DNA of 64,000 nt from an uncultured Magnetococcales bacterium. GTDB taxonomy: Bacteria; Pseudomonadota; Magnetococcia; Magnetococcales; CAYFNE01. Positions 10,376-56,414 of this stretch are shown piece after piece (within the stretch, counting starts at the first letter, position 1; each line of letters begins with the position of its first letter). The DNA lies in the NCBI GenBank assembly GCA_964344355.1, contig CAYFNE010000007.1, positions 7,225 to 71,224 of the forward strand, in the 5' to 3' direction. Both the position numbers and the translations under genes were made by a program. A model generated the notes under the pieces. The model was not told the origin of the DNA and ran no database searches. It saw only the letters and a program-made list of their open reading frames with translations.

Positions 10376-10391
10376 TGGCATGGAACCTGCT
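10376..10391 (+). promoter_or_regulatory. Candidate sigma-54 (-24/-12) promoter for the 10.6-20.3 kb operon
   Basis: TGGCATGgaacCTGCT versus consensus TGGCACG-N4-TTGCW, matching 10 of 12 specified positions. GG (10377-78) and GC (10389-90) have the canonical 12-nt register. Lies 179 nt upstream of ATG 10570. Confidence 0.5.
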
Positions 10392-13544: not shown

Positions 13545-13568
13545 GTATCGCGCTCCGGGATCGGGACA

Positions 13569-15500: not shown

Positions 15501-16558
15501 GCAAGGCACCCAAGGTATTGATCGGCGGCGGCAAACTGGCTGCCAACCCGGACTATTTCAAGGCGTGGCGGCAGGGGAAAAATCCCGGTCCCCTGGTGGT
15601 GGAGGCGGGCATCGTCAATGGTTGCAACCACAACTGTCTGCACTGTGATTTTCAACAGTTCGAACCCTACGGCGACCGGAAAGGGTTCATTGACGCCGAT
15701 CTGTTTCAGACCTTTTTGCGGGATTTCGCCGGCATGGGCGGCATCGAGGTGTTTTTTGCCGGCAGCGGCGAACCCCTGCTGCATCCCAAATTCGCCGATT
15801 TCGTCAAACTGGCCAACGAACTCGGCTTGAGTTGCACCCTGAGCAGCAACGGCCAGATGCTCAACCGGAAAAATGCCGAAAAAATCCTGCCCTACCTGAA
15901 ATGGATCCGCTGTTCGGTCAATGGTGGTGACGCCAAAACCTATGCCGCCATCCATCGTTGCGGCGAAAAGGAGTTCGACCGTCTGGCGCGGAACCTGGAG
16001 ACGGCGATCAGGATACGCGATGCCGGCGGTCATGAGGCGCGGATCTCCATTCAATATATTTTGTACGATCTCAATTTCGATACCATCGCCGGGGTGGTGG
16101 ACCTGCATGAACGGGCCGGCACCGATCTGCTGGTGTTTCGCAACCGTCTGGACAAGGATGGCGGTAAAAACCGGCTGCCGGAAACGGTACTGCGGCGTTT
16201 GCGCCGGTTGGAGGTCGAACGGGATCGGGTGGAGGTGCGCTGGAACGATTTTCCCGATCAGCCCGATCTACCCACCTGGAGCCGCTGTTACGGACCCAAC
16301 TTTCGCATCAACCTCGACGCCTCGGGCAACATCATCCCCTGCGCCCGGGATTTTTATATCCCCAGTAAGGTGGGCAATATCAACACCGACCGTTTTCCGG
16401 ATATCTGGCGCTCGGAAAAACGGCGGCAGGTCTACCGTCAGATCACCAGTGGACGGGATATTCCCATCTGCGGCAAATGGTGCCAGGTCGCATTTGACAA
16501 CATCTATGTGCAGGGATGGCTGGACAGCCATCCCCTGGAGGAGATTCAACATGGCTGA
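15497..16558 (+). CDS. Radical SAM enzyme with SPASM/twitch-type auxiliary cluster domain (paralog-like to 12558..13544)
   Basis: ORF track 15422..16558. Start set to ATG 15497 (MSKAPKVLIGG), an ATGA overlap with the upstream stop. CNHNCLHC motif. C-terminal C-x13-G-x4-C (CYGPNFRINLDASGNIIPC) plus CGKWC. Confidence 0.85.
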   Translation: MSKAPKVLIGGGKLAANPDYFKAWRQGKNPGPLVVEAGIVNGCNHNCLHCDFQQFEPYGDRKGFIDADLFQTFLRDFAGMGGIEVFFAGSGEPLLHPKFADFVKLANELGLSCTLSSNGQMLNRKNAEKILPYLKWIRCSVNGGDAKTYAAIHRCGEKEFDRLARNLETAIRIRDAGGHEARISIQYILYDLNFDTIAGVVDLHERAGTDLLVFRNRLDKDGGKNRLPETVLRRLRRLEVERDRVEVRWNDFPDQPDLPTWSRCYGPNFRINLDASGNIIPCARDFYIPSKVGNINTDRFPDIWRSEKRRQVYRQITSGRDIPICGKWCQVAFDNIYVQGWLDSHPLEEIQHG

Positions 16559-17663
16559 ACCGGCTATCAACTGGTGGAACGTCGAAGTCGGCGAGGAGGC
16601 CGCGCCGCGCATCGTCGATGCCATCGCCAAGGGTCATATCAGTCAGGGGCCGGTTACCGCCGAGTTCGAGAGCGCCCTGGCCGCTTTGTTGAACGTGCCG
16701 TATGCCGTCTGTACCACCAGCGGTACCATGGCCTTGACCATCTCCCTGTTGGCCCTGGGTATCCAGCCCGGTGATGAAGTGATCATGCCCGACCGGACCT
16801 GGGTGGCCACCGCCAACGCCGCCCTGTTGCTCGGCGCCCGGGTGCGATTGGTGGATGTGCTGCCCGACGGTCCGCCGATCATGGATCATGACCGGATCGA
16901 AGCGGCCATCACCCCGAAAACCCGGGCGATTCTGCCGGTACACCTGAACGGGCGGGCTGTGGCCATGGAGCCGGTATTGACCATCGCCGAAAAACATGGG
17001 TTGGGGGTGGTCGAGGATGCCTGTCCCTCCATCTGTTCCCGCCATCGGGGTCGTTTCGTCGGTACCTTCGGTCGATTCGGCTGTTTTTCCCTGGGCATGG
17101 CCAAACTGCTGGGGACCGGACAGGGGGGGGTGATCGTTTGCCACGATGAGGCCGATTACACCCTGCTGACCCGCATCCGCAACCAGGGATTGAGCGGTTC
17201 GGCCATGAATGAACGGCATGATGTCCGCGGTGGCAACTTTAAATTTACCGATATTCAGGCCGCCCTGGGATTGGCGCAACTCGGTTTGTTGGACAAACGC
17301 ATCGAACATCAAAAGGCCATCCACCAACTCTATCTGGATGGTTTGCGGGGACTCGATGCCGTCACCTTCGTACCGGTGGATATCGAGGCCGGTGAAATAC
17401 CCTTGCGTGCCGATGCCATGAGTCCGGACCGCGACCGTTTCGTGCGCGAGATGGCCGATCGGGGTATCGCCATCGCTCCCCAGTCGCCCAATTTGAGTGA
17501 CTTTCCCTTCATCGCCGACGATGGTCGAACATTTGCCAACGCCAAACGGTTTTCCGATACCATGCTCACCCTGCCGTCGGGTCCCGATCAACCGTTGGTC
17601 AATGTGGAAAAAACGGTTGAAACCATCCGCGCCATCGATCCCCTGTTCAAACGCGCATCGTGA
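16551..17663 (+). CDS. DegT/DnrJ/EryC1/StrS-family PLP-dependent aminotransferase
   Basis: In-frame ATG 16551 (MAEPAINWW...) within ORF-track 15921..17663, with an 8-nt overlap onto the upstream gene. Motifs TTSGTMALTISLLALGIQPGDEVIMP and FSLGMAKLLGTGQGG (PLP-lysine region). Confidence 0.9.
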   Translation: MAEPAINWWNVEVGEEAAPRIVDAIAKGHISQGPVTAEFESALAALLNVPYAVCTTSGTMALTISLLALGIQPGDEVIMPDRTWVATANAALLLGARVRLVDVLPDGPPIMDHDRIEAAITPKTRAILPVHLNGRAVAMEPVLTIAEKHGLGVVEDACPSICSRHRGRFVGTFGRFGCFSLGMAKLLGTGQGGVIVCHDEADYTLLTRIRNQGLSGSAMNERHDVRGGNFKFTDIQAALGLAQLGLLDKRIEHQKAIHQLYLDGLRGLDAVTFVPVDIEAGEIPLRADAMSPDRDRFVREMADRGIAIAPQSPNLSDFPFIADDGRTFANAKRFSDTMLTLPSGPDQPLVNVEKTVETIRAIDPLFKRAS

Positions 17664-19138
17664 CCCTCACCGGTAAAGCCGATTTGTCGATCTGGGGAGC
17701 GTCGGAGGGGACCGCTCCCCTGATCGGCCATCTGCGCCAGGCCGGTTTCCAGATCGGCCATATCGTCTCCCACGAGCGGCGCTGGCAGCGGATCGAAGGT
17801 ATCCAGGTGGTGCCGCCGGAGGCCTACCGGGCCACCATCGATTCGACCATACCGCTGGTCATCGACACCGGCGCCGGGGAGTCCGCCGACGGCCGATCGT
17901 TCCTGGCCGTCCAGGAGCGGATCCGGGATCGCTGGGGGTTGAACGACGTACAGATTCTTCATCCGCTGTTTCTCGCCGATCATCTGTTCCCCCGTTTCGC
18001 CGGCAAGGCCGCCATCATCGGTTGCAACCGTTCCGGCAGCACCTTTTTGTTTCATCTGTGCAAGGCCGTTTTGGATCTGCATCCACAACCGCCGGCCGAA
18101 GGCCTCCAGCGATTTTTGCAAACCAGTGCCCGGGACCATCTGCAAACCGTCGATCAACTCCTCACCGGGGCCTTCCAGGGGGAGGGGGCCGGGGAGGGGG
18201 CTGGCTATTGCGCCCAGGGGGCCACTCGTTTCGGAGGCATGGATTTTTTTGGCGCCGCCGAAAACCGGTTTTTCTTTCTCGCTCCGTTTCCCTGCCGGCG
18301 TTATCTGTTCGACACCGTGCATCGCAGCTATTCGCTGTTGGACCGGTCCATCGTCCAACGGTTGTCCCGGTCCGGTTACGCGCTGTTGACGCCATTGAGA
18401 AATCCACTGGATATCATCGTTTCCAACGCCTTCGAGCTGGAATATGTGTTTTTCCACATGTTTCCGGGCGGCGCCCTCGATCGGGTCGAGTCCGGTGTTC
18501 GAGAGGCGTATGGGCGTCGTTTTCTCGCCGATCCGGCCTGGTTCGAACAGATGGCGCTGTATGTGAAAAGGAACATGGAGGCCTATCTGGAACTGGCCGA
18601 TCACACCACCGGCATTCGCTATGAGATGCTGTTGAGTGATCCGCGGACCGCCATGCGCCGCCTGGCGTCGGCCCTCGACCGGGATGATGATGATGAAACC
18701 CTGGCAGAGATCTGGAAACGCCATGCCTTCAAGCCGCTGGCCGCCTTCAAATCCCACTATTTCCGGCCCGGGGAGGGCAAGTGGAAACAGTATCTGGGCC
18801 GCGAACAGCTGCGTATTCTGGCCGATCTGGACTATGGGGATCTGCTTGATGCCCTGGAGTATCCGCTGGACCTGTCCGGCGGCGGCGCCGACCTGCCGCC
18901 ATTGCCGCCGGTCCCCGGGGCCGATATGGCGCTGATGTTGGCGGTGCGGGATGCCATCTTCAGCCTGCAGTTCGATACCCGGTGCAGCCAAAACCATCCG
19001 GCGGTCACCGTTCAGATGGCGAAACCGCCGCTGTCCGGGCTGGGTTTCAGTTCCAACGATGGCCAATTTTTCAACCGGTTCCAAAGATTGAAAAGCGACG
19101 GCGCCTTTCAGGATCTGTATCAGGCGTTGACCGTTTGA
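17660..19138 (+). CDS. Sulfotransferase-family protein with extra ~120-aa N-terminal domain
   Basis: GTG start forming a GTGA overlap with the upstream stop. PAPS 5'-phosphosulfate-binding-type loop AAIIGCNRSGSTFLFHL. C-terminal FRPGEGKWKQYL is typical of sulfotransferases. Confidence 0.75.
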   Translation: MTLTGKADLSIWGASEGTAPLIGHLRQAGFQIGHIVSHERRWQRIEGIQVVPPEAYRATIDSTIPLVIDTGAGESADGRSFLAVQERIRDRWGLNDVQILHPLFLADHLFPRFAGKAAIIGCNRSGSTFLFHLCKAVLDLHPQPPAEGLQRFLQTSARDHLQTVDQLLTGAFQGEGAGEGAGYCAQGATRFGGMDFFGAAENRFFFLAPFPCRRYLFDTVHRSYSLLDRSIVQRLSRSGYALLTPLRNPLDIIVSNAFELEYVFFHMFPGGALDRVESGVREAYGRRFLADPAWFEQMALYVKRNMEAYLELADHTTGIRYEMLLSDPRTAMRRLASALDRDDDDETLAEIWKRHAFKPLAAFKSHYFRPGEGKWKQYLGREQLRILADLDYGDLLDALEYPLDLSGGGADLPPLPPVPGADMALMLAVRDAIFSLQFDTRCSQNHPAVTVQMAKPPLSGLGFSSNDGQFFNRFQRLKSDGAFQDLYQALTV

Positions 19139-19174
19139 TCGATTCGTTTTTGGGTTTTATCAGAAAGGCCGACG

Positions 19175-20251
19175 ATGAACATCATCGATATTGCGGGAAT
19201 CAACTGCCCGGTTTGTGATTCCGAGGTCGATCTGTTCGAACTGCCGTATCCCATGTTTCGCCACATGGATCATGGTTTTCACCGGCCCGGGCCGAAACAT
19301 GTGGCACACTGTTTCGGTTGTGGTTTGATATTCCGGGTCGCCGGCAAAAAGGCCTTGCGGGAGATCGGCGAAATCTACCGTTCCTTCGAATATTCAGCCA
19401 CCGCCGCCAATTTTCATCTGGTCTCCCAGGGTTCCGAAACCGCCCTGCAGGCCCGCACCGTTTTGCGCCATGTTCAGCGACGCGGCGCGGTGTTGGATGT
19501 TGGCTGTTTTGATGGGCGACTGCTCGACGAGTTGCATCGGGCCGGGTTCGGTGACTGTTTTGGCGTCGATCTGCGCAAACATCACCTGTTGCCGGAGCAT
19601 GTCCGGTTTTTCCCGGACATCGGCCGGATCGGGCACACCTTCGATCTGGTGACCGCCACCGGTTCCATACAGTATCTGCCCGATTTGAATCTGTTTTTCC
19701 GTACTGTCGCCGGTCTGCTCAAGGAGGATGGGGTTCTGTTCATCCAGACCACCAACATTCATACCAAACCGCTGTCGATGGTTCTCGGTGATCTCTACTA
19801 CCATTTTTCGGCCGATATTTTACGGCGGATCGGCGCCCGCCATGGTTTCATCGGTCGTCTGTTGCAGCCGGATTGGAACACCCGGGATATCGTCATGCTG
19901 CTGAAAAAAGGAATCCCGGATTCCCTGCCACCGGTCCAGGATGATGTGCGTCTCTGTCTGGAAAGGATCAAAACCCTGCGTGGTCATCTCGATGGCATCG
20001 GCCAGGAAGAGACGATGGTGTTCGGCACCACCCTGGAGGCCAGTTTCGTGGAGCATTTCCTGGGCGGCAGAACGGTGGGATTCGTGGACGAGAACGAGAA
20101 CAAGAAAAATTTCAAGGACAAGCCGGTCATCCACCCCTCGGCGGTGGCCGAAGGGCGGGTGGTCCTGGTGCCCATGTTTGAAATCGGGCGGGAGTTGACC
20201 GCCCGCCTGAATCGGGAATATGCCGGTCGTTTCGTGAACATTGCGGAGTGA
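19175..20251 (+). CDS. SAM-dependent methyltransferase with N-terminal zinc ribbon (sugar C-methyltransferase-like architecture)
   Basis: CPVCDS...HCFGCG zinc ribbon, SAM motif I VLDVGCFDGRLLDEL, and an extra C-terminal domain as in NDP-hexose C-methyltransferases. Confidence 0.75.
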   Translation: MNIIDIAGINCPVCDSEVDLFELPYPMFRHMDHGFHRPGPKHVAHCFGCGLIFRVAGKKALREIGEIYRSFEYSATAANFHLVSQGSETALQARTVLRHVQRRGAVLDVGCFDGRLLDELHRAGFGDCFGVDLRKHHLLPEHVRFFPDIGRIGHTFDLVTATGSIQYLPDLNLFFRTVAGLLKEDGVLFIQTTNIHTKPLSMVLGDLYYHFSADILRRIGARHGFIGRLLQPDWNTRDIVMLLKKGIPDSLPPVQDDVRLCLERIKTLRGHLDGIGQEETMVFGTTLEASFVEHFLGGRTVGFVDENENKKNFKDKPVIHPSAVAEGRVVLVPMFEIGRELTARLNREYAGRFVNIAE

Positions 20252-20268: not shown

Positions 20269-20766
20269 TTACGGCCAGGCGGCCCGTTTCAAAAAGGCCG
20301 TCAACGCCGTCGGTTCCTCCGGTGACCATTCCGGGTAAAATCCTTCCGCCTTGCTGAAGGGGCCGGTGATGGTCTCGTGCAGGACCACCGGATCGGTTTC
20401 CGGGACACAGGCGTAACATTCTCCATGAGAGAGCCGGGTCAGGAACGGGCGGTTCCCTTGCCGTTCACCGAGGACGATGAGACGCCGGACGCTGCCGTCA
20501 TCGTTGAAAACCGGTACCCGCAGAACCCCTTCCAAAATCATGATGGAAACGCTCTTGTGACGATGACGGTGGGGACGGTCCAGGGAGCGCCGGGTGTGGA
20601 CGATGATCATCTCCTGGATGGGATCATCATGATCGGGATGCAGGCACAGTCGGGCCCGGCCCAACTCGGAGCTTCTGGCCACCTTTTTGATGTGCTCCAA
20701 CCGTTCCTGGTCGATCAGGGGCTGGGGTTGGGGGGTGAACAGCGCAACGGATGGAATGGTTGTCAT
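20269..20766 (-). CDS. WbuC-family cupin-fold protein
   Basis: 165 aa. GRARLCLHPDHDDPIQEMIIVHTRRSLDRPHRHRHKSVSIMILEG resembles the WbuC cupin found in glycan loci. ATGA overlap with the upstream gene (20763-20766). Confidence 0.7.
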   Translation of the reverse strand: MTTIPSVALFTPQPQPLIDQERLEHIKKVARSSELGRARLCLHPDHDDPIQEMIIVHTRRSLDRPHRHRHKSVSIMILEGVLRVPVFNDDGSVRRLIVLGERQGNRPFLTRLSHGECYACVPETDPVVLHETITGPFSKAEGFYPEWSPEEPTALTAFLKRAAWP

Positions 20767-23700
20767 GAAACGGCCCTGTGTTTCTCTGGTGATCCGGCCC
20801 CCCGCATTTGACGCAACAGGTTCAAATTGGGATGCTTCGAATCCAGGGATTCTATCATGAACAGGGCGGTTTCATAGGTTTTCATATCACCCGCCTGAAG
20901 AGCGGCCAGGGCCAGTATCGACAACAGTTCCGGATTGGTTACACCGAAGGCCACCCCTTTTTTCAACAGTTCCAAGGCTTCCCGTTCCTTCTTGAGGCTC
21001 ACCAGGATCTGTCCGAGTTGAATCCAGGCATCGATCTGGTGTTCATTCAGGTCGATCGCCTGGCGAAACGAGGTCATCGCTCCATTGAGGTCGCCGGCAT
21101 TCATGTGGGCGATGCCGAGTTGGGCATGGACCTCGGCGGCGTCGGGATGGTGTTTCAAGGCCTGCTTCAAGGTTCGCACGGCGGCGGTGGTGTTTTTCAG
21201 GCTGTTTTGCAGGGTGGCCAGGAACAGGGCCAGTTCGAGGTTTTCAGGGAACCGTTGCAGATGGTGCCGCAACTCGGATTCCGCCTTTTGCAGATGGCCG
21301 GTGCGGGTCAAATCGCTGGCTTGGGCGAGCAGGAGCCTGGCCACCAGGTCGGGGCTTTTTCCGAAACCGCACTCGGGTTTTTCAGGCAACAGGGGGACCT
21401 CTTTCCGGGTATCGTTGAACTGATCCCGCCAGGCTCGCCAGAGGATCTCCCGGATTTGCAACCATTCCTGCAGGGGATCTCCCGAGTCATGGGGCCAGGC
21501 TCGCCGCTCCATTTTCAGGCTGAAAAGCAGTGTTGGCAACATCAGGTGCCGCCATAGGCGCGCCCCGACCGGCGCTTTGTATCCCCAGGCCTTTCCTTTG
21601 GCCGCCAACAGCAATTTCAACCGTAGGCGGTCGAAGAGGGGGAGGTGTTTTTCATACCGCTCCTTGAGACTGACCGGGGAAAAGCCGGTTTGACGTTCGC
21701 TGCCGGTATAGGTGCGGTACCACCACTGTTTTCCATCGAAGGTGCTGTTGAGCAGGGAGTCGTTCCAGGAGAGACCGAGCCAGGAGGCGATCCGGCTCAT
21801 CGTTTCCCGGGGATTGGTTTTGAGATTTTCGAAGGTGACCGCCCGGGAACGGTGTGCATACTCCGGCAAGGTCGGGGGGCCGCCAAAAAAATGGTCGTTG
21901 AGCAACCAGGCCAGAATGTCTTGGGTAATGGCTGGTTTACCCGGTTTGACCAAGTGTTCGACATAGTGGGAAAAATGCGATCCCAGGGAGCGGATCGGCT
22001 GTCGCACGATATGGAGAAAGAGGGTATCGGGAAAATCGTGGGTCAACATCCGGCAACGATGCGGATTGACGTTGTGCATCTGGAAAAGGATCAACGGATT
22101 GGCCGGGGCCGTGCGTCCCAACGCTTCATGATAGGCCAGATGCACCGCCTGGAAAAATCGTTGGCGGTTTTGTTCTTCCTCCGGACCGAGATGGTCGAGC
22201 AGGGAACGGATGAACCGGACCGGGGAAACGCCGATGGGCTCGTTTTGATCGGGACCCATATGGGTAAAAGTTTCGCCGTTGGCGCCCGGGCAGGGGTTGC
22301 GGGTATCGAAAAACACTGAATAGAAGCGTATGAAGGAGACGATCCGTTGCTTGGGCGTCTCATCCTTTGTCTGCTCCCAAAAATCGAAAAATTTGGTGAA
22401 ATAGCCGGGTATGCTGAGCACGTCGGGGTGGGAATCGAGCAGGCTCTGCAAAAACAGCGTGCCGCTGTCGCCATAACAGACGATCGCCGCCACCCGTTCC
22501 GGCAGGATGACTTCCGGGTTTTTCCCGGTGTCCATCCGGTCCGTTGCGGAGGGGGACCGCTCTTTGAACAGGTTGAGGGTCGGGTGTTTGGGATGGAGCA
22601 GATCGATCATGAACCGGCCGATATCATAGGTCGGTCCATCATCGTTTTCCCGGGCGGCCAGGGTCAGGTGGATCCAGGCATCCAGATTGTCGACGCCATG
22701 CCGAACCGCCCGTTCCAGTTGTTCCTGGGCGGCCCTGTTTTGGCCCCGGCCAAGCAGAACCTGACCGAGGATGAGGTGCGCCTTGGTCTGGCAGGGATCG
22801 ATTTCGAGGGCTTTTTCACAGGCGGCGGCTGCGGCGACCGGGTCTTGTGGTAATTTTCCATCCTGGGACATGTGGATGGTTGCGCACATGACGTGGAGAT
22901 CGGCACTGTCGGCGGCGAGGGAGAGGGTGGTTTTCAGCGTTTCCAAAGCCGCCTTGGGACTGCCGACCGACAGGTAGAGCGTGGCCAACAACCGGGCCAG
23001 TTGGGGATTTTTGGAAAAGTGATGAAAATGGGGGGTGAGCGCGGATATGGCTTCCGTCCGGCGGTTCGCCGCCATCAATGGCTCGATCTGCTTGATCAGG
23101 CTGCTCACCACCTGATCGGAAGCCTGTTCGAAACCTCGGCCCGGTTGTTCCTCCAGCAACTTCAACTCCGGACGGGTTTCCCGGAACAGATCCTTCCAGG
23201 TCTGCCACAGGATCTGCCGGATGATGAACCAGTCGGCCAATGCGCGGTTACTGTAATTGGGCCAGGCCAGGGTTTCCATGCGGAAGGAGAACAGGAGGAA
23301 CGGAAACAACATCGTTCGGACCCACCGCCAGTTTTGCCAGGCGGATGTCGGATAGTTCCAGTACCGAAGTTTGGCCGACAGGAGAATTTTCAACCGCAGC
23401 CGGTCGAACGGGGTATAGTAGGTGTCATGTTTGCGCTTGAGGGCGGTATCGGAGAAGCCGGTGATCTCCTCTCCCTTTGCGGCCTTGAACCAATATTGCA
23501 AACCATCCAGGGTGCTTTCCAACAGACTGTCGTTCCAGGAGATACCCAACCAATTGCAGACCTTTCGCAGGGTTTCCCGGGGGTTTTTCTTGAGATCCTC
23601 GAGCCGTACCGCCCGGGAGCGATCCGTATAACCGGATAAAACCGGTTTTCCTCCCATTAGAATGGCGTTCATCACCCAGGCGAGGTTATCGGCAAAGATG

Positions 23701-24269
23701 GGTCTTTCATCGGAGTTGCTGCGGTAATGGGAGCCCAGGGACTGGATGGGGTCCCGAATCATGTGCAGAAAAAGGGTGTTTGGAAAATCGCGTACCAGTT
23801 CCCGGGCTCGGCCCGGATGGGGGTTGTGCAGGGAATAGACCAGGACAGGGTTTTCGATGGGGGGACGTCCCAGGGCTTCGTGATAGGCCAGATGCAGCGC
23901 CTGGAACAGAAGTTTGCGCGATACCCGGGGGGTATCGCCGAGCAATCGTTTCATCGCCGGGAAAAAGATCAGTGGATCGATGCCCAGTACCTGGTCCCGG
24001 TTCGGCCCGAGGTTGGTGAACTCCCCACCGACCGGGCACTTGTTTCGCGCATCGAAAAAGGCGGCGAAGTACCGGGTGAGCGCCCCGATCGCATCCTTGG
24101 ACGACAGCCCCTTGGCCTCGTCCCAGAATCGGCAGAAAAACGTTTCCAGATAACCGGGAAGGATCAACAGTTCAGGGTGACCATCCAACAGGCTGTGCAT
24201 GAAATAGGAGCCGCTACGGCCATAGAACATGATCGCAACCACCCGTTCCGGCAAGCTTGATGATGTCAT
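20763..24269 (-). CDS. Tandem-duplicated [sulfotransferase-like + TPR] protein, 1168 aa
   Basis: Two colinear ~583-aa modules, with LPERV at residues 6 and 589. Each has a P-loop-like sulfotransferase N-terminus (MFYGRSGSYFMHSLLDGHPELL / VCYGDSGTLFLQSLLDSHPDVL), a shared HLAYHEALGR, and C-terminal TPR repeats. Confidence 0.8.
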   Translation of the reverse strand: MTSSSLPERVVAIMFYGRSGSYFMHSLLDGHPELLILPGYLETFFCRFWDEAKGLSSKDAIGALTRYFAAFFDARNKCPVGGEFTNLGPNRDQVLGIDPLIFFPAMKRLLGDTPRVSRKLLFQALHLAYHEALGRPPIENPVLVYSLHNPHPGRARELVRDFPNTLFLHMIRDPIQSLGSHYRSNSDERPIFADNLAWVMNAILMGGKPVLSGYTDRSRAVRLEDLKKNPRETLRKVCNWLGISWNDSLLESTLDGLQYWFKAAKGEEITGFSDTALKRKHDTYYTPFDRLRLKILLSAKLRYWNYPTSAWQNWRWVRTMLFPFLLFSFRMETLAWPNYSNRALADWFIIRQILWQTWKDLFRETRPELKLLEEQPGRGFEQASDQVVSSLIKQIEPLMAANRRTEAISALTPHFHHFSKNPQLARLLATLYLSVGSPKAALETLKTTLSLAADSADLHVMCATIHMSQDGKLPQDPVAAAAACEKALEIDPCQTKAHLILGQVLLGRGQNRAAQEQLERAVRHGVDNLDAWIHLTLAARENDDGPTYDIGRFMIDLLHPKHPTLNLFKERSPSATDRMDTGKNPEVILPERVAAIVCYGDSGTLFLQSLLDSHPDVLSIPGYFTKFFDFWEQTKDETPKQRIVSFIRFYSVFFDTRNPCPGANGETFTHMGPDQNEPIGVSPVRFIRSLLDHLGPEEEQNRQRFFQAVHLAYHEALGRTAPANPLILFQMHNVNPHRCRMLTHDFPDTLFLHIVRQPIRSLGSHFSHYVEHLVKPGKPAITQDILAWLLNDHFFGGPPTLPEYAHRSRAVTFENLKTNPRETMSRIASWLGLSWNDSLLNSTFDGKQWWYRTYTGSERQTGFSPVSLKERYEKHLPLFDRLRLKLLLAAKGKAWGYKAPVGARLWRHLMLPTLLFSLKMERRAWPHDSGDPLQEWLQIREILWRAWRDQFNDTRKEVPLLPEKPECGFGKSPDLVARLLLAQASDLTRTGHLQKAESELRHHLQRFPENLELALFLATLQNSLKNTTAAVRTLKQALKHHPDAAEVHAQLGIAHMNAGDLNGAMTSFRQAIDLNEHQIDAWIQLGQILVSLKKEREALELLKKGVAFGVTNPELLSILALAALQAGDMKTYETALFMIESLDSKHPNLNLLRQMRGAGSPEKHRAVS

Positions 24270-24843: not shown

Positions 24844-25596
24844 ATGAAAACCCAATGGGAATACACCGATCTGGCGGATGCCTATCTGAAACGGCCCGAT
24901 TATTCGGATGAGGCCATTCAGGCCATGTTGAACCATTCCGGTCTGGACGATTCCGCCCATGTCTGTGATGTGGGGGCGGGTGTGGCGCATTTGACCATCA
25001 AGCTGGCCGAACAGGGTTTCCAGGTCGATGCGGTGGAACCCAACGATGCCATGCGCAGCAACGGTATCCGGCGCACGGAACGGTTCGCCAATATCAACTG
25101 GTTCGAAGGGACCGGCGAAGAGACCGGTCGTCCGGACAACGGTTATCATCTGGTGACCTTCGGTTCTTCGTTCAATGTTTGCGACCGGTCCAAGGCGTTG
25201 TTGGAGACCCGGCGCATCTTGAAACCGCGGGGCTGGTTCGCCTGCATGTGGAATCATCGCGATTTGAAGGACCCCATTCAAAAATCGATCGAGGGGATCA
25301 TCGCTTCGCAGATCGACGGTTATGATTATGGCAGCCGTCGTGAGGATCAAACGGAGGTGATCGATCAAAGCGGTCTGTTCGGCGAGGTGTTCAAGATCGA
25401 AGGGGCGGTTTCCCACCGACAGACCATTGCCGACTGTGTGGAGGCCTGGCGCTCCCACGCCACCCTGCAACGCCAGGCCGGCGACCATTTCGGCAGGATC
25501 GTCGACGAGATCGAAAAAATGTTGTTGGGATTGGACGAACCGAACATCATCATTCCCTATACCACCCGGCTGTGGATGGCGCAGTTGCGGGCGTAA
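24844..25596 (+). CDS. Class I SAM-dependent methyltransferase
   Basis: ORF track 24721..25596. Start set to ATG 24844 (MKTQWEYTDLADAYL), preceded by GAGGAA. Motif I VCDVGAGVAHLTIKLAEQGF. Post-I and motif II region ILKPRGWF. Confidence 0.85.
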   Translation: MKTQWEYTDLADAYLKRPDYSDEAIQAMLNHSGLDDSAHVCDVGAGVAHLTIKLAEQGFQVDAVEPNDAMRSNGIRRTERFANINWFEGTGEETGRPDNGYHLVTFGSSFNVCDRSKALLETRRILKPRGWFACMWNHRDLKDPIQKSIEGIIASQIDGYDYGSRREDQTEVIDQSGLFGEVFKIEGAVSHRQTIADCVEAWRSHATLQRQAGDHFGRIVDEIEKMLLGLDEPNIIIPYTTRLWMAQLRA

Positions 25597-25624
25597 CCAT
25601 CCGGCATCGGTTGGCCGGTTGGTT
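25595..25624. terminator. Hairpin filling the spacer between convergent genes (possible bidirectional terminator)
   Basis: AACCA-T-CCGGC atcggttg GCCGG-T-TGGTT: 10 bp of stem with one T.T mismatch. It occupies the 27-nt gap between the stops at 25596 and 25624. No clear U-tract. Confidence 0.35.
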
Positions 25625-26172
25625 CAGGGTTCGGCGTTCACCGCCCGGGGGGGATCCAGCCGTCGACGGGTTTCAAGAATCCGGTCGGCCTGCTCGGACG
25701 GTGATCGGCTGCCATCGTTGTCCAGAATCAGGTCCGGTCGTTTCGGCGCCTGGTAGGCCAAATCGACGCCCATGAGATTGTTCAACTCGCCATCGCGGTT
25801 TTTCTGATAGAGCCGTTTGGAATCGCGGGCGGTGAGGACTGCCATGGGCGCCCGGACATAGACCTCGAAATAGTCCCGGACATTGTCCCGGTTCCAGGCC
25901 TGCACCTCATGGAACAGGGAGATGGTGGCGCAGACCACATCGATCCCCTGATCGACCAGATAGTGGCAGAGCCGGGCATATTTCATGGCCAACCGCAATC
26001 GCTCCTCCGGCGAGTAGGAGCCGGAAACGGCGAACACCCGTCGCAGTTCATCGCCATCGAGCATGACCACATTCGGTTTTTCCGCCTTCAGGGCGGCATA
26101 CAGTTCTCGGCCGATGGTGGTCTTGCCGGCCCCGGAAAGACCGGTCAACCAAAACAAAGTCGCCATAACCAC
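25624..26172 (-). CDS. cysC: Adenylylsulfate (APS) kinase
   Basis: 182 aa. LFWLTGLSGAGKTTIGRELY...VVMLDGDELR...FEVYVRAP is typical CysC. Confidence 0.9.
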   Translation of the reverse strand: MVMATLFWLTGLSGAGKTTIGRELYAALKAEKPNVVMLDGDELRRVFAVSGSYSPEERLRLAMKYARLCHYLVDQGIDVVCATISLFHEVQAWNRDNVRDYFEVYVRAPMAVLTARDSKRLYQKNRDGELNNLMGVDLAYQAPKRPDLILDNDGSRSPSEQADRILETRRRLDPPRAVNAEP

Positions 26173-26175
26173 TCT

Positions 26176-26871
26176 TCATCCACAGTTGAAGAAAGTCCGC
26201 AGCAACCGGCCATCCGCCGCCTCGAACGGCCGGTTGCGCTCCGGATGCCACATGATGCCCAGCACGCGTCCATCGACCTGTTCCAGGGCTTCGATGGTGC
26301 CGTCCTCCGCCCGTGCCGAAACCCGGAACTCCCGGTGGTTCATCTCATTTAAGACATGGTTGTGATAGGAGTTCACCCCCGCCGGACGATCGAGGAGGGA
26401 TCGAAAATGCCCGGTCTCGTCGGCGATGAGTCGATGATTTTGCCCAACATGACCCGCCTTTCGTTTCACGAAGAATCCCAGCCGCCAAGCCAAAAACTGC
26501 ATGCCCCGGCAGACGCCCAACAGCGGCAATCCCCGCTCCCGGGCCAGTTCCAGCAGTTGGCCCTCCTGCTGATCCCGTTGCCGGGAGAGGGGGTCATCGT
26601 TCAATGCGCTCAGATCGTTGCCTCCGGAAAGAATGATGCCGACCGGTTGCAGGGTGTTCACATAATGAACCGCCTCCACCCCCGGCAACAGGGGTACCGG
26701 CAACAGGTCCAGTGAGGCCAGAAAAGCCCCCCAATTTTCATCCAGGCAGGCCCGTGTTTCCGGATAGGTGTCGTTTCCGACCAATCGTTGACTGATCAAT
26801 ACCGCTTTCAATTCAACACCATGACCGTTTTTTCGGAACAGTTCAGCTCCAGCAGGGAGGCGCGGCTCCAA
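26176..26871 (-). CDS. Class I glutamine amidotransferase-like / peptidase C26 (gamma-glutamyl hydrolase family)
   Basis: GVCRGMQFL nucleophile elbow and MWHPE motif. The ATG at 26871 would overlap the upstream gene by 64 nt. An in-frame TTG at 26811 (LKAVLISQRL...) gives a TTGA start/stop overlap and may be the true start. Confidence 0.8.
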   Translation of the reverse strand: MEPRLPAGAELFRKNGHGVELKAVLISQRLVGNDTYPETRACLDENWGAFLASLDLLPVPLLPGVEAVHYVNTLQPVGIILSGGNDLSALNDDPLSRQRDQQEGQLLELARERGLPLLGVCRGMQFLAWRLGFFVKRKAGHVGQNHRLIADETGHFRSLLDRPAGVNSYHNHVLNEMNHREFRVSARAEDGTIEALEQVDGRVLGIMWHPERNRPFEAADGRLLRTFFNCG

Positions 26872-29186
26872 TTATCGAAATATCGTTTGCCACAACCGAT
26901 CACCGATGGCAATCCCAGTTCGGCGGCGCGGATGGCCATGTGCGAGTTGCAACCGCCATACTGGGTGATCAAACCACCGATGTTGCGGCTGAAAATCCAG
27001 TCATAACCCGGGTCGGCACTGGATATGCAGACGATTTTTCCCTGTAGATCCGATTCCAACAGTTCCGGCTCGGTGACCGTCGCCCCCTGGACCCGGGAGA
27101 GGGTGATGAAGTTCGGTTCGCTGCCATTGAGGCAAAAATCGTAGATGTCTTCGGGGCGGAAGATCACCGGTGGCAGATCGATTGCCTGGGAGTGGTTGAA
27201 GGAACGCTTGTTGCGGGCGATGTTATCCCGCAACCGTTCTCCCAGGCCCTGTTCCCCGAGGCTGGCATAGAGGTCCAATACCACCTGAATGTCCAGATAG
27301 GAGAGTTCATCGGCGTTGAGGCCATGGGGTTGGCCGATCTCTTCGAGCAGGGAGAGCACGGCGCTCAAGTGTCGCGTGAAAACGAACTTGCCATATTCCC
27401 GGCCCTCGATGGCCCGGCGGATGAACGCCAGCAAATGGTCCACCGAGACATCCAAACCGTTGGTGACCAGCAGATGGGCGATGTGCTCACGCTGCGGTTG
27501 CGAAAAGGAGAACTCTTTTTCCGGATCGGAACCCTCGTTGGCGCCGATCCCGCCCGCACCCGGCTCGGTCAGGCTGGGAAAATATATCTCGAAGGCCTCA
27601 TCATAGCGTTTGGAGAGAATGTTGTAGGTGCCGGGCCGCAGATGCCCGTAACGAGCGAGAAAATCGGCCGTCGACAGGCCGCCGGTGCGCAACAGCCGCA
27701 CATCGTCGGCCAGGTCCCGGGAGACGGTTTTCAGGGTGCGCATGTAGGCCGACCGTTCCTCCTCGCTGCACACCCCCATGGCCACGAAGGCGTCCAAAAA
27801 CTGTACGGCGATGAAACCGGCCCGGGCCAGCCCGGCGAACGGCAGGGTGCCGTAGCGTTTGCAGTCCTCCATCAACCAGTAGAGTTTTTCCACCTGCGAC
27901 ATGGGGCCTTCCATCACCTCGCCATAGCGCCGTTCCAGATGCTCGACCTTGGCCAGATCGCGTTGAAAATGGCCATCCTTGGAGTGGATGATGCCGTTGG
28001 TGACCTTGAGCAGTCCAAACTTGATCCGGTCCAGTTCGTCCTCACTGAAACCGTGATCGAGCAGTTTTTTGATGCGTTGCCCCAGGCCGGGATAATAACA
28101 GGTGTAGAGAATTTTGAACTCCACCTTGTCATGGTCGCTGGGCTGGCGGGTGAAACGATCCAGATAATAATCCACCAGCTTGTAGGCCAGTTTGTCGTCG
28201 ATCTCTTTGGGGATGAAGGAGTTGAAGGTGACCCGCACATCGATGTAGGGCTTGCCGAACAACGCGATCAACAGCGGGAAACCGCGCATGTTGCGATAGC
28301 CGTAGTTGTCCCGTTGGTAGGCCCAGATGGAGTCGGTGATCAACTCCTTGTAGAGCGACAGCGCCAGGGGCCGGGGGTTGGTACCGATGATTTCGGCCGG
28401 GTTCCAGTCGGGCATGTTGCCGAGAATGGTGCGCGATCCCACCAGATCGGGGTGGGGCAGGTTGAGCTTTTCGATCCGACCGCGAATTTTGTTCAGATAT
28501 CCTTCCAGACGGTCGATCGGCACCGGGGGATGCTTGGAACCGACCACCATGGGCCGTACCTGCAACAGGTGCAGCCGGTCCTGGTCATCGACGGCGAACT
28601 CAATGTCCAGATGTTCAAAGGCGAACCGTTTTTCAAGCTCATCCGCCGTTTCGATCAACCGTTGCAACCACGGTTCGGGGATGGGAATTTCCGCCCGTTT
28701 GAACCGGACCCGGGTGGTGAACTCACTCATGCCCCCGGATGTCACGCCATCGGTGGAACCCAACTGATCATCATAACTGAGCACATAATAAGGAGACAGG
28801 GTGTCCAGGTCGCTGGTGAACAGCACCCCGGCCAGGCGGACCGGCTGGATCTGTTTTTGTACCAATACCTGGTGATTGGCGTCGCCGTCGCCATAGGAGG
28901 CGATGACCCGGTTGATGGCGGCGTGCAGACGTTCCATGTCATCGGTGGGGATGCCGAGCAGGGAGAGATACCGTCCCGCCTGGGAGGCGTTCACGCCATC
29001 CTCGCCCAGGGCGGAACTGCGCACGGCCACCTCCTGGCCGGCGAATTGCCGGTGGAGTTTTTTCAATACGATGCCGGGCGTCTCACGCCATTGACCGACG
29101 CTGAAACAGGCCAATGGTGGAATATCGGCAACCGTCAGTTTGCCTTCCAGTGACTGTAACGTCTCCGCCTTGCTGCCAAATTTCAT
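26808..29186 (-). CDS. PEP-synthase/PPDK-like dikinase (ATP-grasp PPDK_N domain + C-terminal phospho-His swivel domain, no PEP/pyruvate TIM barrel)
   Basis: ORF track 26808..29360. Start set to ATG 29186 (MKFGSKAETLQSLEGKL) with AGGAGG 6 nt upstream. C-terminal GGLITQYGGCNSHMAIRAAELGLPSVIG is the mobile-domain His motif. Confidence 0.85.
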   Translation of the reverse strand: MKFGSKAETLQSLEGKLTVADIPPLACFSVGQWRETPGIVLKKLHRQFAGQEVAVRSSALGEDGVNASQAGRYLSLLGIPTDDMERLHAAINRVIASYGDGDANHQVLVQKQIQPVRLAGVLFTSDLDTLSPYYVLSYDDQLGSTDGVTSGGMSEFTTRVRFKRAEIPIPEPWLQRLIETADELEKRFAFEHLDIEFAVDDQDRLHLLQVRPMVVGSKHPPVPIDRLEGYLNKIRGRIEKLNLPHPDLVGSRTILGNMPDWNPAEIIGTNPRPLALSLYKELITDSIWAYQRDNYGYRNMRGFPLLIALFGKPYIDVRVTFNSFIPKEIDDKLAYKLVDYYLDRFTRQPSDHDKVEFKILYTCYYPGLGQRIKKLLDHGFSEDELDRIKFGLLKVTNGIIHSKDGHFQRDLAKVEHLERRYGEVMEGPMSQVEKLYWLMEDCKRYGTLPFAGLARAGFIAVQFLDAFVAMGVCSEEERSAYMRTLKTVSRDLADDVRLLRTGGLSTADFLARYGHLRPGTYNILSKRYDEAFEIYFPSLTEPGAGGIGANEGSDPEKEFSFSQPQREHIAHLLVTNGLDVSVDHLLAFIRRAIEGREYGKFVFTRHLSAVLSLLEEIGQPHGLNADELSYLDIQVVLDLYASLGEQGLGERLRDNIARNKRSFNHSQAIDLPPVIFRPEDIYDFCLNGSEPNFITLSRVQGATVTEPELLESDLQGKIVCISSADPGYDWIFSRNIGGLITQYGGCNSHMAIRAAELGLPSVIGCGKRYFDNWSRASLLELNCSEKTVMVLN

Positions 29187-29306
29187 CCCGACCTCCTGGA
29201 ACGATTTGGACGGGTCGAGCGGATGTCCCATTCCCTTTGAACGGGATATCCACAAAACACCGTCAGATCCCCGTTTTTGCATCCGGGAATTGGATATTTC
29301 TGGAAA

Positions 29307-29322
29307 AGCAACTCCCGTGCCG
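29307..29322 (-). promoter_or_regulatory. Candidate sigma-54 (-24/-12) promoter for the dikinase-amidotransferase-cysC operon
   Basis: Minus strand reads cGGCACGggagTTGCt, matching 11 of 12 specified positions of TGGCACG-N4-TTGCW with exact GG-N10-GC spacing. About 120 nt upstream of ATG 29186. Confidence 0.6.
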
Positions 29323-29642
29323 TAATTTATAAAACTGTAAAAACAATAAGATGAAAACATTGTGTGCGGATTGGAACCAAGTGGTGGGCATTATTTTCCG
29401 GTTGGAAGGGGTGGGGGGACATTTCTGCCCCTGGCGGGGTGTCCGGGGCTGGACAATCCTTGAGGGGATTCGTTGGTGCGGCCGGAGCACGAAATAACCG
29501 GTGGGTGTCCGGTCCCTCTTTTTTTCTCCGGCCCAACATGGGACACTCTTCTTCCGGGGGATTCGGTTTTATGAGCCGGAGCCTATGATAATCAGTTGCT
29601 TCCGTGTCTCTCCCGGAGGCGAACGCCGTCAGCGATTGGCCC

Positions 29643-35267: not shown

Positions 35268-35283
35268 AGCATTCCGAATGCCA
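35268..35283 (-). promoter_or_regulatory. Weak candidate sigma-54-type element upstream of the hydrolase-ligase-TPR/GT9 unit
   Basis: Minus strand reads TGGCATTcggaATGCT, matching 9 of 12 specified positions with correct GG-N10-GC spacing. It sits inside a perfect palindrome GCATTC-c-GAATGC, about 200 nt upstream of the GTG at 35064. Confidence 0.3.
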
Positions 35284-37264: not shown

Positions 37265-38200
37265 ATGGCTAATCAAGACAGCAGCTGCAAGCAGATCTTC
37301 AGTTATCCCGATATGGTACGGGATCTGCTCGTTGGGTTCATCAAGGAAGATTGGATCGAACAACTGGATTACACCACTCTGGAGAAGGTTGGCGGCAGCT
37401 ATGTGACCGACGATCTTCGTGAACGGATGGATGATGTCATCTGGCGGGTCCGCTGGGGTCGGGAGTGGCTCTATGTCTATGTGATCCTGGAATTCCAGAC
37501 CACGGTGGATCGGTTCATGGCGGTACGCATGGATGTCTATGTGATGTTGCTCTACCAGGACCTGATCAAGTCCAATCAGATCGGCAAGGGAGAAAAATTA
37601 CCGCCCGTGCTGCCGGTTGTGCTATACAATGGGAAGGCGGAGTGGGCAGCGGCTCTGGATGTGGCGGACGTGATCCTCCCCGCTCCGGTCGGTCTGGGGC
37701 GCTACCGTCCGCGGATGCGGTATCTGCTCATCGACGAAAATCGCCTCGGACAAACGGACTTGATTCTGGACCGCAACCTGGCGGCAGCTCTGTTTCGGTT
37801 GGAAAGGAGCAGGACCCCCGAAGATGTCCGCACCGTGGTCCGGGAGTTGATCGACTGGTTGAAAGCGCCAGCGCAGACCGGATTGCGTCGAGCGTTCTCC
37901 GTGTGGCTTGGCCGGGTGCTGTTGCCCAGGAAGCTGCCCGGGCAGAAGGTGCCGGAAATTATGGATTTACAGGAGGTGGACGCCATGTTGGCCGAGACGG
38001 TGCAGGAATGGACAAAACAGTGGAAAGAGGAAGGACGCCAGGAGGAAGCTGCGTCATTTCTGCTGCGTCTGCTTCAACGGCGATTTGGATTCTTGCCTGC
38101 CGACCTCATTGAAAAGGTCCGGTCGGCAGATAGAGGTACCCTGGAAACATGGGGTTATCGGGTTTTGGACGCTCAAGCATTGGACGATATATTTGTGTGA
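37265..38200 (+). CDS. Rpn-family (YhgA-like) recombination-promoting nuclease, PD-(D/E)XK fold, with DUF4351-like C-terminus
   Basis: CKQIFSYPDMVRDLLVGFI...DDVIWRVRW...WLYVYVILEFQTTVDRFMAVRMDVYVMLLYQDL is typical of Rpn/transposase_31. The C-terminal FLLRLLQRRFGFLPADLIEKV is DUF4351-like. Confidence 0.8.
   Translation: MANQDSSCKQIFSYPDMVRDLLVGFIKEDWIEQLDYTTLEKVGGSYVTDDLRERMDDVIWRVRWGREWLYVYVILEFQTTVDRFMAVRMDVYVMLLYQDLIKSNQIGKGEKLPPVLPVVLYNGKAEWAAALDVADVILPAPVGLGRYRPRMRYLLIDENRLGQTDLILDRNLAAALFRLERSRTPEDVRTVVRELIDWLKAPAQTGLRRAFSVWLGRVLLPRKLPGQKVPEIMDLQEVDAMLAETVQEWTKQWKEEGRQEEAASFLLRLLQRRFGFLPADLIEKVRSADRGTLETWGYRVLDAQALDDIFV
37985..38200 (+). CDS. Possible intragenic small ORF (RpnS-like, 71 aa) translated in frame from within the Rpn gene
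   Basis: AGGAGG at 37971-37976, then an 8-nt spacer, then the in-frame ATG 37985. The product MLAETVQEWTKQWKEE... covers exactly the C-terminal domain. Confidence 0.35.
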   Translation: MLAETVQEWTKQWKEEGRQEEAASFLLRLLQRRFGFLPADLIEKVRSADRGTLETWGYRVLDAQALDDIFV

Positions 38201-54977: not shown

Positions 54978-56414
54978 CTACCGGCCTCTCTTTTTGTCTT
55001 CGGCGCCGATACGACGCATGAGGGTGTGGCGGGAGATGCCGATCAGGGCGGCGGCGGCCCGCTGATTGCCGTCCACACGCCGGAGCGCCTCCTGGATCAA
55101 CAAGCGGGTGGTTTTTTCCACGGTCGGCAGGGGGTCGGGCAGGGTTTGAAACGGGTTGGCATCGGTGTCATCGACAGCGGGGGAAACACTCTCTTCACCG
55201 GTGTTGCTGCGGTGCCGGATGACCTTTTTGAAGGAGTCCGTGGAGAGCACGCCGGCGGTGTGCCGGGCCACGGCATCCGTGACCAAGGCGTGCAGCTCCC
55301 GGATGTTCCCGGGAAAGGCGTAGGATTTGAGCCACTGGAACAGTTCCGGCGGTGGGGTGGGCACCTTTTTGTCGAGGGAGGCGGCCGCCTCTTCGAGGAA
55401 ATATCGAACCAGCAGGGGAATATCCTCCTTGCGCTCGCGCAGGGCCGGCAACCGCACCTGGTGGGAGGAGAGGCGATAGAACAGATCGGGACGGAACGTA
55501 CCGGCATTCATGCGTTCCTCCAGGTCCCGGTGGGTGGCGCAAACCACCCGGGCATCGGTGGTTTGGGAGAGGTCCGAACCCAGGGGATGATATTTTCGTT
55601 CTTGCAGCAAGCGCAGCAATTTGACCTGGGAAGCGTGTTCCAGGTCGCCGATTTCATCGAGAAACAGGGTGCCCCCCTCGGCCTGGGCCACCATTCCCTT
55701 TCGATTTTGATCGGCGCCGGAAAAGGCCCCTTTGCGATGGCCGAACAGGGTATCGGAAAACATGTTGTCGTCGATGCCGGCCACATTGACCGCCACCAGT
55801 TCCCCCTGGCGGCCACTGGCCTTGTGGATGGCCTGTACCAGCAACTCCTTGCCGACGCCGGTTTCGCCGGTCACCAGGATCGGATCCTTGGAATGGGCCA
55901 CGGCTTCGATATATTTGAAAATGGCCCGCATCTCCCCGTTCCGGGTCAAAATGTGCGAAAAGGCCTCGGGGTTTTGCAACCCTTCGGCCAGCAAGGAGCC
56001 TTTCAAAGCCCGGATCTCCCGTTCCATGGCCCGGCGCTCCAACGCCCGTTCGATGCAGGAGAGAAATCGGGTCTCCTCGACCGGTTTCACCAGATAGTCG
56101 AAGGCCCCGTCGTGCATGCACTGGACGGCTGTTTCCACATTGTCGACGGCGGTCATCATGATGACCGGGATATCGGGGAATCTGTTTTTGATTTCCGGCA
56201 ACAGCTTGTGCCCGGGCAGTTCCGGCATCAGGACGTCCAACACCACGACGCCAACCCCACTCTTTTCCAAAAAGGGCAGCAACTCCCGCCCCCTTTGAAA
56301 GGTTTTGACCGGACCGAAACCGTGGGTACGCAACAGCACCCGCGAGGTCATCAAAATATCGGCTTCATCATCGACCAGGACGATCGGCAGCTGGTTGGCA
56401 TCGTTGTGTGACAT
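54978..56414 (-). CDS. Sigma-54-dependent response regulator (NtrC family)
   Basis: ORF track extends to 56618. Start set to ATG 56414 ([21 protein letters not shown]). AAA+ Walker [15 protein letters not shown] (GAFTGA-type sigma-54 contact loop). C-terminal [20 protein letters not shown]. Confidence 0.92.

Follow-up and report, generated by a model that had tools for sequence, protein, structure and literature searches.

A probable phosphoramidate-donor operon, rearranged and without its cytidylyltransferase, in a glycan island of an uncultured Magnetococcales bacterium

Why a gene resembling an adenylyl-sulfate (APS) kinase should close an operon that opens with a dikinase-like protein, within a glycan island and with no ATP sulfurylase at hand, is the question raised by a 64,000-nucleotide stretch of DNA from an uncultured Magnetococcales bacterium (contig CAYFNE010000007.1, positions 7,225 to 71,224), referred to here as the window. 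Three genes run on its minus strand from 29186 to 25624, and a first-pass annotation had read them as the incomplete supply of 3'-phosphoadenosine 5'-phosphosulfate (PAPS). The answer reached here is a different one: the operon probably encodes three of the four enzymes that produce the activated phosphoramidate donor known from the synthesis of capsule O-methyl phosphoramidate (MeOPN), a rare phosphorus-nitrogen modification of surface sugars, in Campylobacter jejuni. It is a recognisable, rearranged relative of that pathway, lacking the cytidylyltransferase, and not a half-encoded PAPS supply. The evidence consists of homology, domain content, catalytic residues, fold, and synteny and gene fusion in other genomes, and the substrates are taken from the C. 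jejuni enzymes.

In C. jejuni NCTC 11168, the MeOPN genes are Cj1415-Cj1418, described by Taylor, Raushel and co-workers in 2017-2019 and cited here through PMC6429109, PMC12409886 and PMC3907429; the chemistry is summarised in PMC6429109 and in passages of a preprint on Borg elements (bioRxiv 10.1101/2024.11.05.622173), and the genetics is covered in PMC3907429. Read by analogy, the route would start with a glutamine kinase turning ATP and L-glutamine into N-phospho-glutamine (the Cj1418 reaction, EC 2.7.3.13). A Cj1416-type cytidylyltransferase, which is not encoded here, would add CMP to give CDP-L-glutamine, from which an enzyme of the GATase fold, equipped with a Cys-His-Glu triad, would free glutamate and leave cytidine diphosphoramidate (the Cj1417 reaction). 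A CysC-like kinase would then phosphorylate the 3'-OH, yielding 3'-phospho-cytidine-5'-diphosphoramidate, a structural analogue of PAPS (the Cj1415 reaction). The O-methyl group would probably be supplied by a methyltransferase encoded convergently with the operon (24844-25596), the conserved fifth gene of the cassette, and a 1168-residue protein (20763-24269) would most likely transfer the phosphoramidate from the PAPS-like donor to a glycan or glycoprotein that the island produces. Transcription would proceed from a sigma-54 promoter at 29322-29307.

The three gene products

The first gene (26808..29186, minus strand) encodes a 792-residue homologue of L-glutamine kinase of the Cj1418 type, hereafter GlnK, in which an ATP-grasp domain is followed by a helical substrate domain and by a swivel phospho-His domain carrying His749. 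Pfam recognises PPDK_N and the PEP-utilizers mobile domain in this protein and gives no match to the PEP-utilizers_C TIM barrel, whilst the NCBIfam model NF004508 is matched over the full length with 937 bits, well above its cut-off of 501. Many relatives with 45-65% identity bear the JGI name 'glutamine kinase', and His749, within the motif GGxNSHMAIR, is invariant across 20 homologues. The AlphaFold (AF2) model (pLDDT 86.8, pTM 0.83) begins with an ATP-grasp part, continues with a central domain built entirely of helices (residues 331-666) and ends in a small alpha/beta domain; there is no (beta/alpha)8 barrel anywhere in it. Its only full-length structural matches are entries for the rifampin phosphotransferase (RPH) of Listeria, the best being 5HV1 (E 1.7e-22). 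The protein is taken to be an L-glutamine kinase of the Cj1418 type, glutamine being the presumed substrate by analogy with the C. jejuni enzymes. Two other identities were considered and rejected. A phosphoenolpyruvate (PEP) synthase or pyruvate, phosphate dikinase is contradicted by the missing PEP-utilizers_C domain, by the barrel-free model and by equivalog scores of 30-53 bits against cut-offs of 456-1063; for RPH, the cut-offs of NF041857 and NF000283 lie at 999 and 1700 bits and the protein reaches 36 and 21, so that the fold alone is held in common.

The beginning of this gene can be read directly from the letters of the minus strand, where AGGAGG (29197-29192) is followed by ATG at 29186. 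The 792-residue protein is favoured over an 850-residue open reading frame (ORF) starting at 29360, because the public gene call (ERZ930068 / ERR2281803) gives the shorter product and because the approximately 240 listed GlnK homologues measure 752-815 residues, except for one kinase fusion of 980 residues, and begin to align at residue 1-5. Downstream, the GlnK stop overlaps the next start as T-TGA (26811-26808). The public calls likewise continue with a 211-residue product whose TTG start at 26811 overlaps the stop, followed by a 180-residue product from 26166, and 68 homologues of the second protein begin at the same place as the TTG. The first-pass annotation had already moved the start to 29186, proposed the TTGA-coupled start at 26811 and drawn a three-gene operon with translational coupling, and all of this is borne out. 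It had likewise described the first product as a barrel-less PPDK_N and swivel-His protein, a view that a PEP-binding barrel would have contradicted; neither the Pfam scan of 26808..29186 nor the AF2 model contains one, and the match to 5HV1 supports its comparison with rifampin-phosphotransferase-like phospho-His enzymes acting on a substrate other than pyruvate.

The second gene (26176..26811, minus strand), with its TTG start overlapping the upstream stop, encodes a protein of the class-I GATase fold, which Pfam places in Peptidase_C26/GATase. The top family of this 211-residue protein is NF045546, gamma-glutamyl-CDP-amidate hydrolase (E 2e-40, 138.9 bits), which leads the next family (55 bits), and any true amidotransferase, by approximately 85 bits. 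The catalytic triad, with the nucleophilic Cys in LGVCRGMQ and a His-x-Glu in MWHPER, is kept in 68 homologues. Judged by sequence, the protein is a putative gamma-glutamyl-CDP-amidate hydrolase of the Cj1417 type. The previous label 'C26 amidotransferase-like' is correct as to the family and is not supported as to the activity, the best curated match being this hydrolase.

The third gene (25624..26166, minus strand) encodes a CysC-like P-loop kinase of 180 residues, assigned on NF004041/PRK05541, motifs and synteny as a cytidine diphosphoramidate 3'-kinase of the Cj1415 type. Pfam reports APS_kinase (E 8e-34). With 194 bits, the protein passes the cut-off of NF004041/PRK05541 (127), whereas on the APS-kinase equivalog TIGR00455 (apsK) it reaches 120.7 bits and stays under the cut-off of 138.7. 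The difference can be located by aligning the window kinase, together with 66 kinases from cassettes, to four solved APS kinases. The cassette kinases share AM(K/R), CATISLF and WNR(D/E)N together with a hydrophobic pair, where the solved APS kinases have N(I/V)RR, (F/A)ISPY and GFTG; the window kinase itself carries AMK, CATISLF, WNRDN and LMG. At two aromatic positions adjoining the APS-type motifs, GF and FTG in APS kinases, it has SY and LMG. A true CysC, that is, an adenylyl-sulfate kinase, was rejected on these two grounds, the TIGR00455 score and the substituted APS-binding positions, and the label 'cysC' given to the gene before describes the fold and nothing further. Searches of the PDB by sequence found no solved structure of the Cj1415, Cj1417 or Cj1418 type.

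The cassette in other genomes, its missing gene and its partners

A scan of species-representative genomes returned relatives in at least 596 genomes across Bacteria and some Archaea, and the synteny counts given below refer to the best 80 loci from these genomes (more than 15 phyla). The 80 loci include Bdellovibrionota, Bacteroidota, Campylobacterota, Nitrospirota, Omnitrophota, Spirochaetota and Desulfobacterota, and further Bacillota (many of them Lachnospiraceae), Acidobacteriota, Pseudomonadota, Cyanobacteriota-like lineages, Planctomycetota and a Methanoperedens contig. The hydrolase gene accompanies GlnK in 69 of the 80 loci and the CysC-like kinase in 70; in about 20 of them, the kinase forms the N-terminal domain of a kinase-GlnK fusion of approximately 975 residues. 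A nucleotidyltransferase (NTP_transferase) of about 245 residues is present in 72 loci, and a homologue of the window methyltransferase in 63, mostly between kinase and GlnK, with further copies in L083-L086. In each of the three closest relatives (53-54% identity), methyltransferase, kinase, GlnK, hydrolase and nucleotidyltransferase form a compact module that is joined by a Sulfotransfer_3 protein of 410-445 residues. Examined in 22 loci, the neighbours of the cassette comprise sugar-nucleotide epimerases and dehydratases, methyltransferases, AsnB, DegT, radical-SAM enzymes, GT2 glycosyltransferases and sulfotransferases; these surroundings are glycan loci, and ATP sulfurylase is absent from their 25 commonest neighbour families.

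Several individual loci deserve mention. The fusions occur in Acidobacteriota, Gemmatimonadota, Eremiobacterota and some Proteobacteria (L029, L034, L039, L046, L048, L049, L052, L056, L058, L061, L062, L066-L069, L071, L073-L075, L077, L080 and L082), and protein P0084 is another. A cultured bacterium, Azospirillum lipoferum 4B, has the full cassette on its plasmid AZO_p6 (L089, 27861-36158) under generic PGAP names, including an 846-residue 'adenylyl-sulfate kinase' in which Pfam assigns no family to the first 650 residues; two Sulfotransfer_1 proteins are encoded nearby. The Candidatus Methanoperedens contig (L045) holds an archaeal GlnK and hydrolase, in agreement with the MeOPN-like cluster of the Borg preprint. 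In a Campylobacterales metagenome-assembled genome (MAG), an Inositol_P gene for a CysQ-like bisphosphate nucleotidase (L030:12932-13678, plus strand) lies between the cassette hydrolase and the nucleotidyltransferase, a position consistent with removal of the 3',5'-bisphosphate nucleotide by-product.

The gene missing from the window is the Cj1416-type phosphoglutamine cytidylyltransferase, not ATP sulfurylase; it is named as such because the cassette genes co-occur with a nucleotidyltransferase in related loci. That no ATP sulfurylase (cysDN/sat) is encoded in the window had been stated before and is confirmed by the domain scans, which found neither it nor a CysD/N domain in any window ORF scanned. 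In the relatives, the nucleotidyltransferase directly follows the hydrolase; in the window, it is the kinase that comes after the hydrolase, the methyltransferase has the inverse orientation, and therefore the locus has been rearranged, with GlnK, hydrolase and kinase on the minus strand and the methyltransferase convergent to them.

This methyltransferase (24844..25596, plus strand) belongs to class I of the S-adenosylmethionine (SAM)-dependent enzymes according to Pfam and, given its presence in 63 loci, is a candidate O-methylase of the phosphoramidate. Beyond it lies the gene for the 1168-residue protein (20763..24269, minus strand), a candidate phosphoramidyl transferase with TPR repeats and two sulfotransferase-fold domains (Sulfotransfer_3, E 6.7e-26). 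The two domains (residues 7-335 and 589-925) are paralogous, with 47% identity to each other, and both are homologous to cassette-adjacent proteins of 400-870 residues and to proteins in all three closest relatives. A profile of the sulfotransferase domain finds a homologue in 28 of the 80 loci, within 5 kb of GlnK in 27 of them, and a second, Sulfotransfer_1-like family adds nine loci, so that at least 37 of the 80 have a sulfotransferase-fold gene, 36 within 5 kb. The 1168-residue protein keeps the GRSGS 5'-phosphate loop and the 3'-phosphate motif RDPxxxxxS, and the closest solved relatives of its sulfotransferase domain are the tyrosylprotein (TPST) and CurM sulfotransferases. Since the end product of the pathway is isosteric with PAPS, the cassette-linked proteins may transfer phosphoramidate and not sulfate, using 3'-phospho-CDP-amidate as sulfotransferases use PAPS; this is an argument from association, and the proposal is put forward tentatively, at somewhat less than an even chance. 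The same proteins could be ordinary PAPS-dependent enzymes, a point that weighs against the transfer step. The second sulfotransferase of the window (17660-19138) belongs to neither of the two cassette-linked families. The gene of the 1168-residue protein overlaps by 4 nt with that of a WbuC-family cupin (DUF6016; 20269..20766, minus strand; TIGR04366, E 5e-29).

Other points also count against the phosphoramidate-donor pathway. The hydrolase, with its 138.9 bits, remains below the narrow equivalog cut-off of NF045546 (250), as do its homologues in Campylobacterales MAGs (185-190 bits) and all non-Campylobacter relatives tested. No Campylobacter protein appeared among the listed matches to the window GlnK, the Campylobacterales GlnK profile or the Campylobacterales sulfotransferase-like protein, nor in the genome scan, and the likeness to the C. 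jejuni enzymes runs through curated models, JGI names and synteny, not through alignment with the C. jejuni proteins. Above all, no Cj1416-type nucleotidyltransferase was found in the window by tblastn with six representatives (E > 1) or by a profile hidden Markov model (HMM) of the cassette-linked homologues run against the six-frame translation (E > 1). None was found in the flanking contig either, that is, the left 7 kb (pilus and type II secretion system (T2SS) genes) and the right 10 kb (RecQ, hemerythrin, NnrS and others); the search covered about 81 kb of the contig, with some 15.6 kb of contig and the rest of the genome lying outside it. The genes present here thus do not add up to the whole pathway.

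Taken at its worst, this gap could point to a remnant cassette, decaying or rearranged, which lost its function with the cytidylyltransferase or was repurposed to stop at N-phospho-glutamine: the enzyme is found in 72 of 80 relatives, including all of the closest, directly after the hydrolase, the window locus has been rearranged, and none turned up along the contig examined. However, none of the three ORFs is broken or shortened, their catalytic residues and translational coupling have been kept, the partner transferase is present as an intact, duplicated protein, and, as nucleotidyltransferases are common, one encoded elsewhere in the genome could serve; a remnant is thus considered unlikely. 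The gap could also be turned in favour of sulfation. On that account, a true APS kinase would make PAPS for the island sulfotransferases from the APS of a housekeeping ATP sulfurylase, and the dikinase-like protein would separately phosphorylate the product, as the first-pass annotation had proposed. The APS_kinase match of Pfam, two nearby proteins with sulfotransferase domains and the want of a cytidylyltransferase to complete the alternative route speak for it. Yet the kinase falls under the TIGR00455 cut-off, has SY, AMK, SLF and LMG in place of the APS-contacting motifs GF, N(I/V)RR, SPY and GFTG, and belongs to a clade that is linked or fused to GlnK, hydrolase and nucleotidyltransferase in 70 of the 80 loci, with ATP sulfurylase missing from the commonest neighbours; moreover, the gamma-glutamyl hydrolase-like enzyme would be left without a role. 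A sulfating island is accordingly held to be very improbable, and neither the half-encoded PAPS supply with a product both sulfated and phosphorylated nor the drawing of APS from the housekeeping pathway is supported. The phosphoramidate-donor pathway is retained as the best explanation of the operon.

A sigma-54-type element upstream of the operon

The control of the operon is a separate matter. A sigma-54-type -24/-12 element, CGGCACGggagTTGCT (29307..29322, minus strand), lies 120 bp upstream of ATG 29186 in a divergent intergenic region of 417 bp. Read from 29322 to 29307, the minus strand is CGGCACGGGAGTTGCT, which agrees with 11 of the 12 specified positions of TGGCACG-N4-TTGCW and has the GG-N10-GC spacing; it is the sole match in the window with at most one mismatch, and transcription would be predicted to start near 29296. 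Farther upstream, two exact copies of GGGTGTCCGG (29437-29446 and 29503-29512), detected as a 10-nt direct repeat, are spaced 66 bp from each other and precede the -24 element by 115-190 bp. No third exact copy occurs in the window, a fact of modest statistical weight, and the pair may constitute an activator-binding site; the repeat is absent near the other two sigma-54-like motifs of the window.

The first of these two, TGGCATggaacCTGCT (10376..10391, plus strand), matches 10 of the 12 positions and is located 127 bp before a seven-gene operon (10519-20251) whose called start is 10519, and the second, TGGCATtcggaATGCT (35268..35283, minus strand), is weaker (9 of 12) and is found 203 bp upstream of an operon running from 35064 to 30904 on the minus strand, which encodes a hydrolase, an acyl-AMP ligase and a TPR-GT9 protein. 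The glycan island has three large operons, and each of them has one of the three intergenic motifs in front of it. Upstream intergenic zones make up 4.1% of the strand positions in the window, and they hold two of the five matches with at least 10 of 12 positions (P ~0.02, post hoc) and three of the 27 with at least nine (P ~0.10, post hoc). The organism uses sigma-54, as shown by a gene for an NtrC-type activator (54978..56414, minus strand) in which domain scans identify a receiver, an AAA+ Sigma54_activat domain and HTH_8; the gene attests sigma-54 use in general rather than a tie to the GlnK operon.

Whether the element is a promoter has to be judged against chance: shuffled windows contain 0.68 such matches on average, 50% of them having at least one, and Markov simulations expect 0.42, with at least one in 33%. 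By itself, the motif could thus be due to chance. Nor is it conserved upstream of the cassette in the 80 distant and five closer loci (at most 54% protein identity), and no integration host factor (IHF)-like site was seen between the direct repeat and the motif. All three points weigh against sigma-54 control and in favour of a chance match, with the operon being read from an unrecognised sigma-70 or other promoter within the 417 bp, an explanation that must be taken seriously as only moderately short of an even chance. Against it stand the post hoc enrichment of the motifs in intergenic zones, each before one of the three island operons, the sigma-54 activators encoded by the organism, and a simple scan of the minus strand in 29187-29603 that disclosed no sigma-70-like -35/-10 pair. 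On balance, it is plausible, with about an even chance or slightly better, that a sigma-54 promoter at 29322-29307 drives the operon, as predicted from the letters of the element, and the two further motifs suggest an RpoN regulon. Of the 'strong sigma-54-type promoter' originally announced, the 11 of 12 positions and the exact spacing stand, and the word 'strong' has to be given up in view of the 0.42-0.68 matches expected by chance.

Surroundings, significance and known systems

The remaining features of the window are of lesser bearing on the operon. The plus-strand genes at 10519-20251 are tightly packed and encode, in order, a TPR-glycosyltransferase, a radical-SAM/SPASM protein, a B12-binding radical-SAM protein, a second radical-SAM/SPASM protein, a DegT aminotransferase, a Sulfotransfer_1 protein and a methyltransferase. 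An isolated Cse2-like gene precedes them (9561-10187, plus strand; CRISPR_Cse2, E 4e-10), and neither further cas genes nor a repeat array came to notice in the window. A YhgA-like gene with Transposase_31 and DUF4351 (37265-38200, plus strand) lies where the glycan island ends on the right, adjoining a RecQ helicase, and may mark the island boundary. A 1129-residue ORF (49975-53364, minus strand), which is also a public gene call, has no Pfam family at E <= 0.001; its neighbours are a GGDEF response regulator on one side and a DnaJ-like gene on the other. A type IV pilus/T2SS cluster occupies 1-3635 and the contig beyond (L087), with a secretin, an MshE-type ATPase, T2SSF and five small N_methyl pilin-like genes. 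Scanning the window for Rfam families and tRNA genes produced no matches.

According to reviews, O-methyl phosphoramidate has hitherto been found in Campylobacter species alone, and the glutamine kinase has been called 'C. jejuni-specific' (PMC6429109, PMC9561416). A cassette present in hundreds of unrelated genomes suggests that P-N glycan chemistry is much wider than this, and public names such as 'PEP-utilizing enzyme', 'gamma-glutamyl-GABA hydrolase family' and 'adenylyl-sulfate kinase', for example on the Azospirillum plasmid, invite a misreading as a sulfate pathway. An APS_kinase domain beside sulfotransferase domains is insufficient evidence for sulfation. The recurrent pairing with sulfotransferase-fold proteins provides testable candidates for the transfer step, which has no biochemical description in the literature cited. 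Should these proteins be phosphoramidyl transferases, P-N (O-methyl-phosphoramidate-like) decoration of surface glycans or proteins would be widespread, reaching at least 596 species-level genomes, and not a Campylobacter speciality, and here it would form part of a glycan island under sigma-54 control. Three things make the locus interesting: the wide occurrence of the cassette outside Campylobacter, its recurrent sulfotransferase-fold partners and the possible sigma-54 regulon of the island.

Set beside known systems, two of the single proteins share features with known families. RPH of Listeria (RPH-Lm, PDB 5HV1/5FBS) has the same three-domain architecture as GlnK, and presumably the same swivel-His phosphotransfer mechanism, but the identity is only about 15%, the score of 36 bits is far from the equivalog cut-off of 999, and the genomic context is resistance in one case and a biosynthetic cassette in the other. 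The window kinase, in turn, has in common with CysC and with the kinase domain of PAPS synthase (PDB 2PEY, 5CB6, 2YVU) the P-loop fold and the phosphorylation of a 3'-OH on a nucleoside 5'-phospho-anhydride, and its proposed product would be an analogue of the PAPS made by assimilatory APS kinases; it differs from CysC in its replaced APS-binding signature residues, in its score below the TIGR00455 cut-off and in its tie to a glutamine kinase and not to sat/cysDN.

Two systems resemble the operon as a whole. The four-gene MeOPN-like cluster of a Borg, an extrachromosomal element of Methanoperedens, is another non-Campylobacter set of glutamine kinase, hydrolase and cytidylyltransferase, deduced from structure (bioRxiv 10.1101/2024.11.05.622173). 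It retains the cytidylyltransferase, once fused to a PEP mutase, and the preprint passages report no sulfotransferase-fold partner. The MeOPN locus of C. jejuni, likewise a surface-glycan locus, has the same types of enzyme: its glutamine kinase is a barrel-less ATP-grasp/swivel-His protein, its gamma-glutamyl-CDP-amidate hydrolase has the GATase fold, its 3'-kinase is CysC-like, and a SAM methyltransferase is associated with them. From this model, the window departs in having no Cj1416-type cytidylyltransferase and in the order GlnK-hydrolase-kinase with a convergent methyltransferase, as well as in a candidate transferase that is a double sulfotransferase-fold TPR protein, in possible sigma-54 control and in its host, an uncultured environmental bacterium with a G+C content of approximately 59%.

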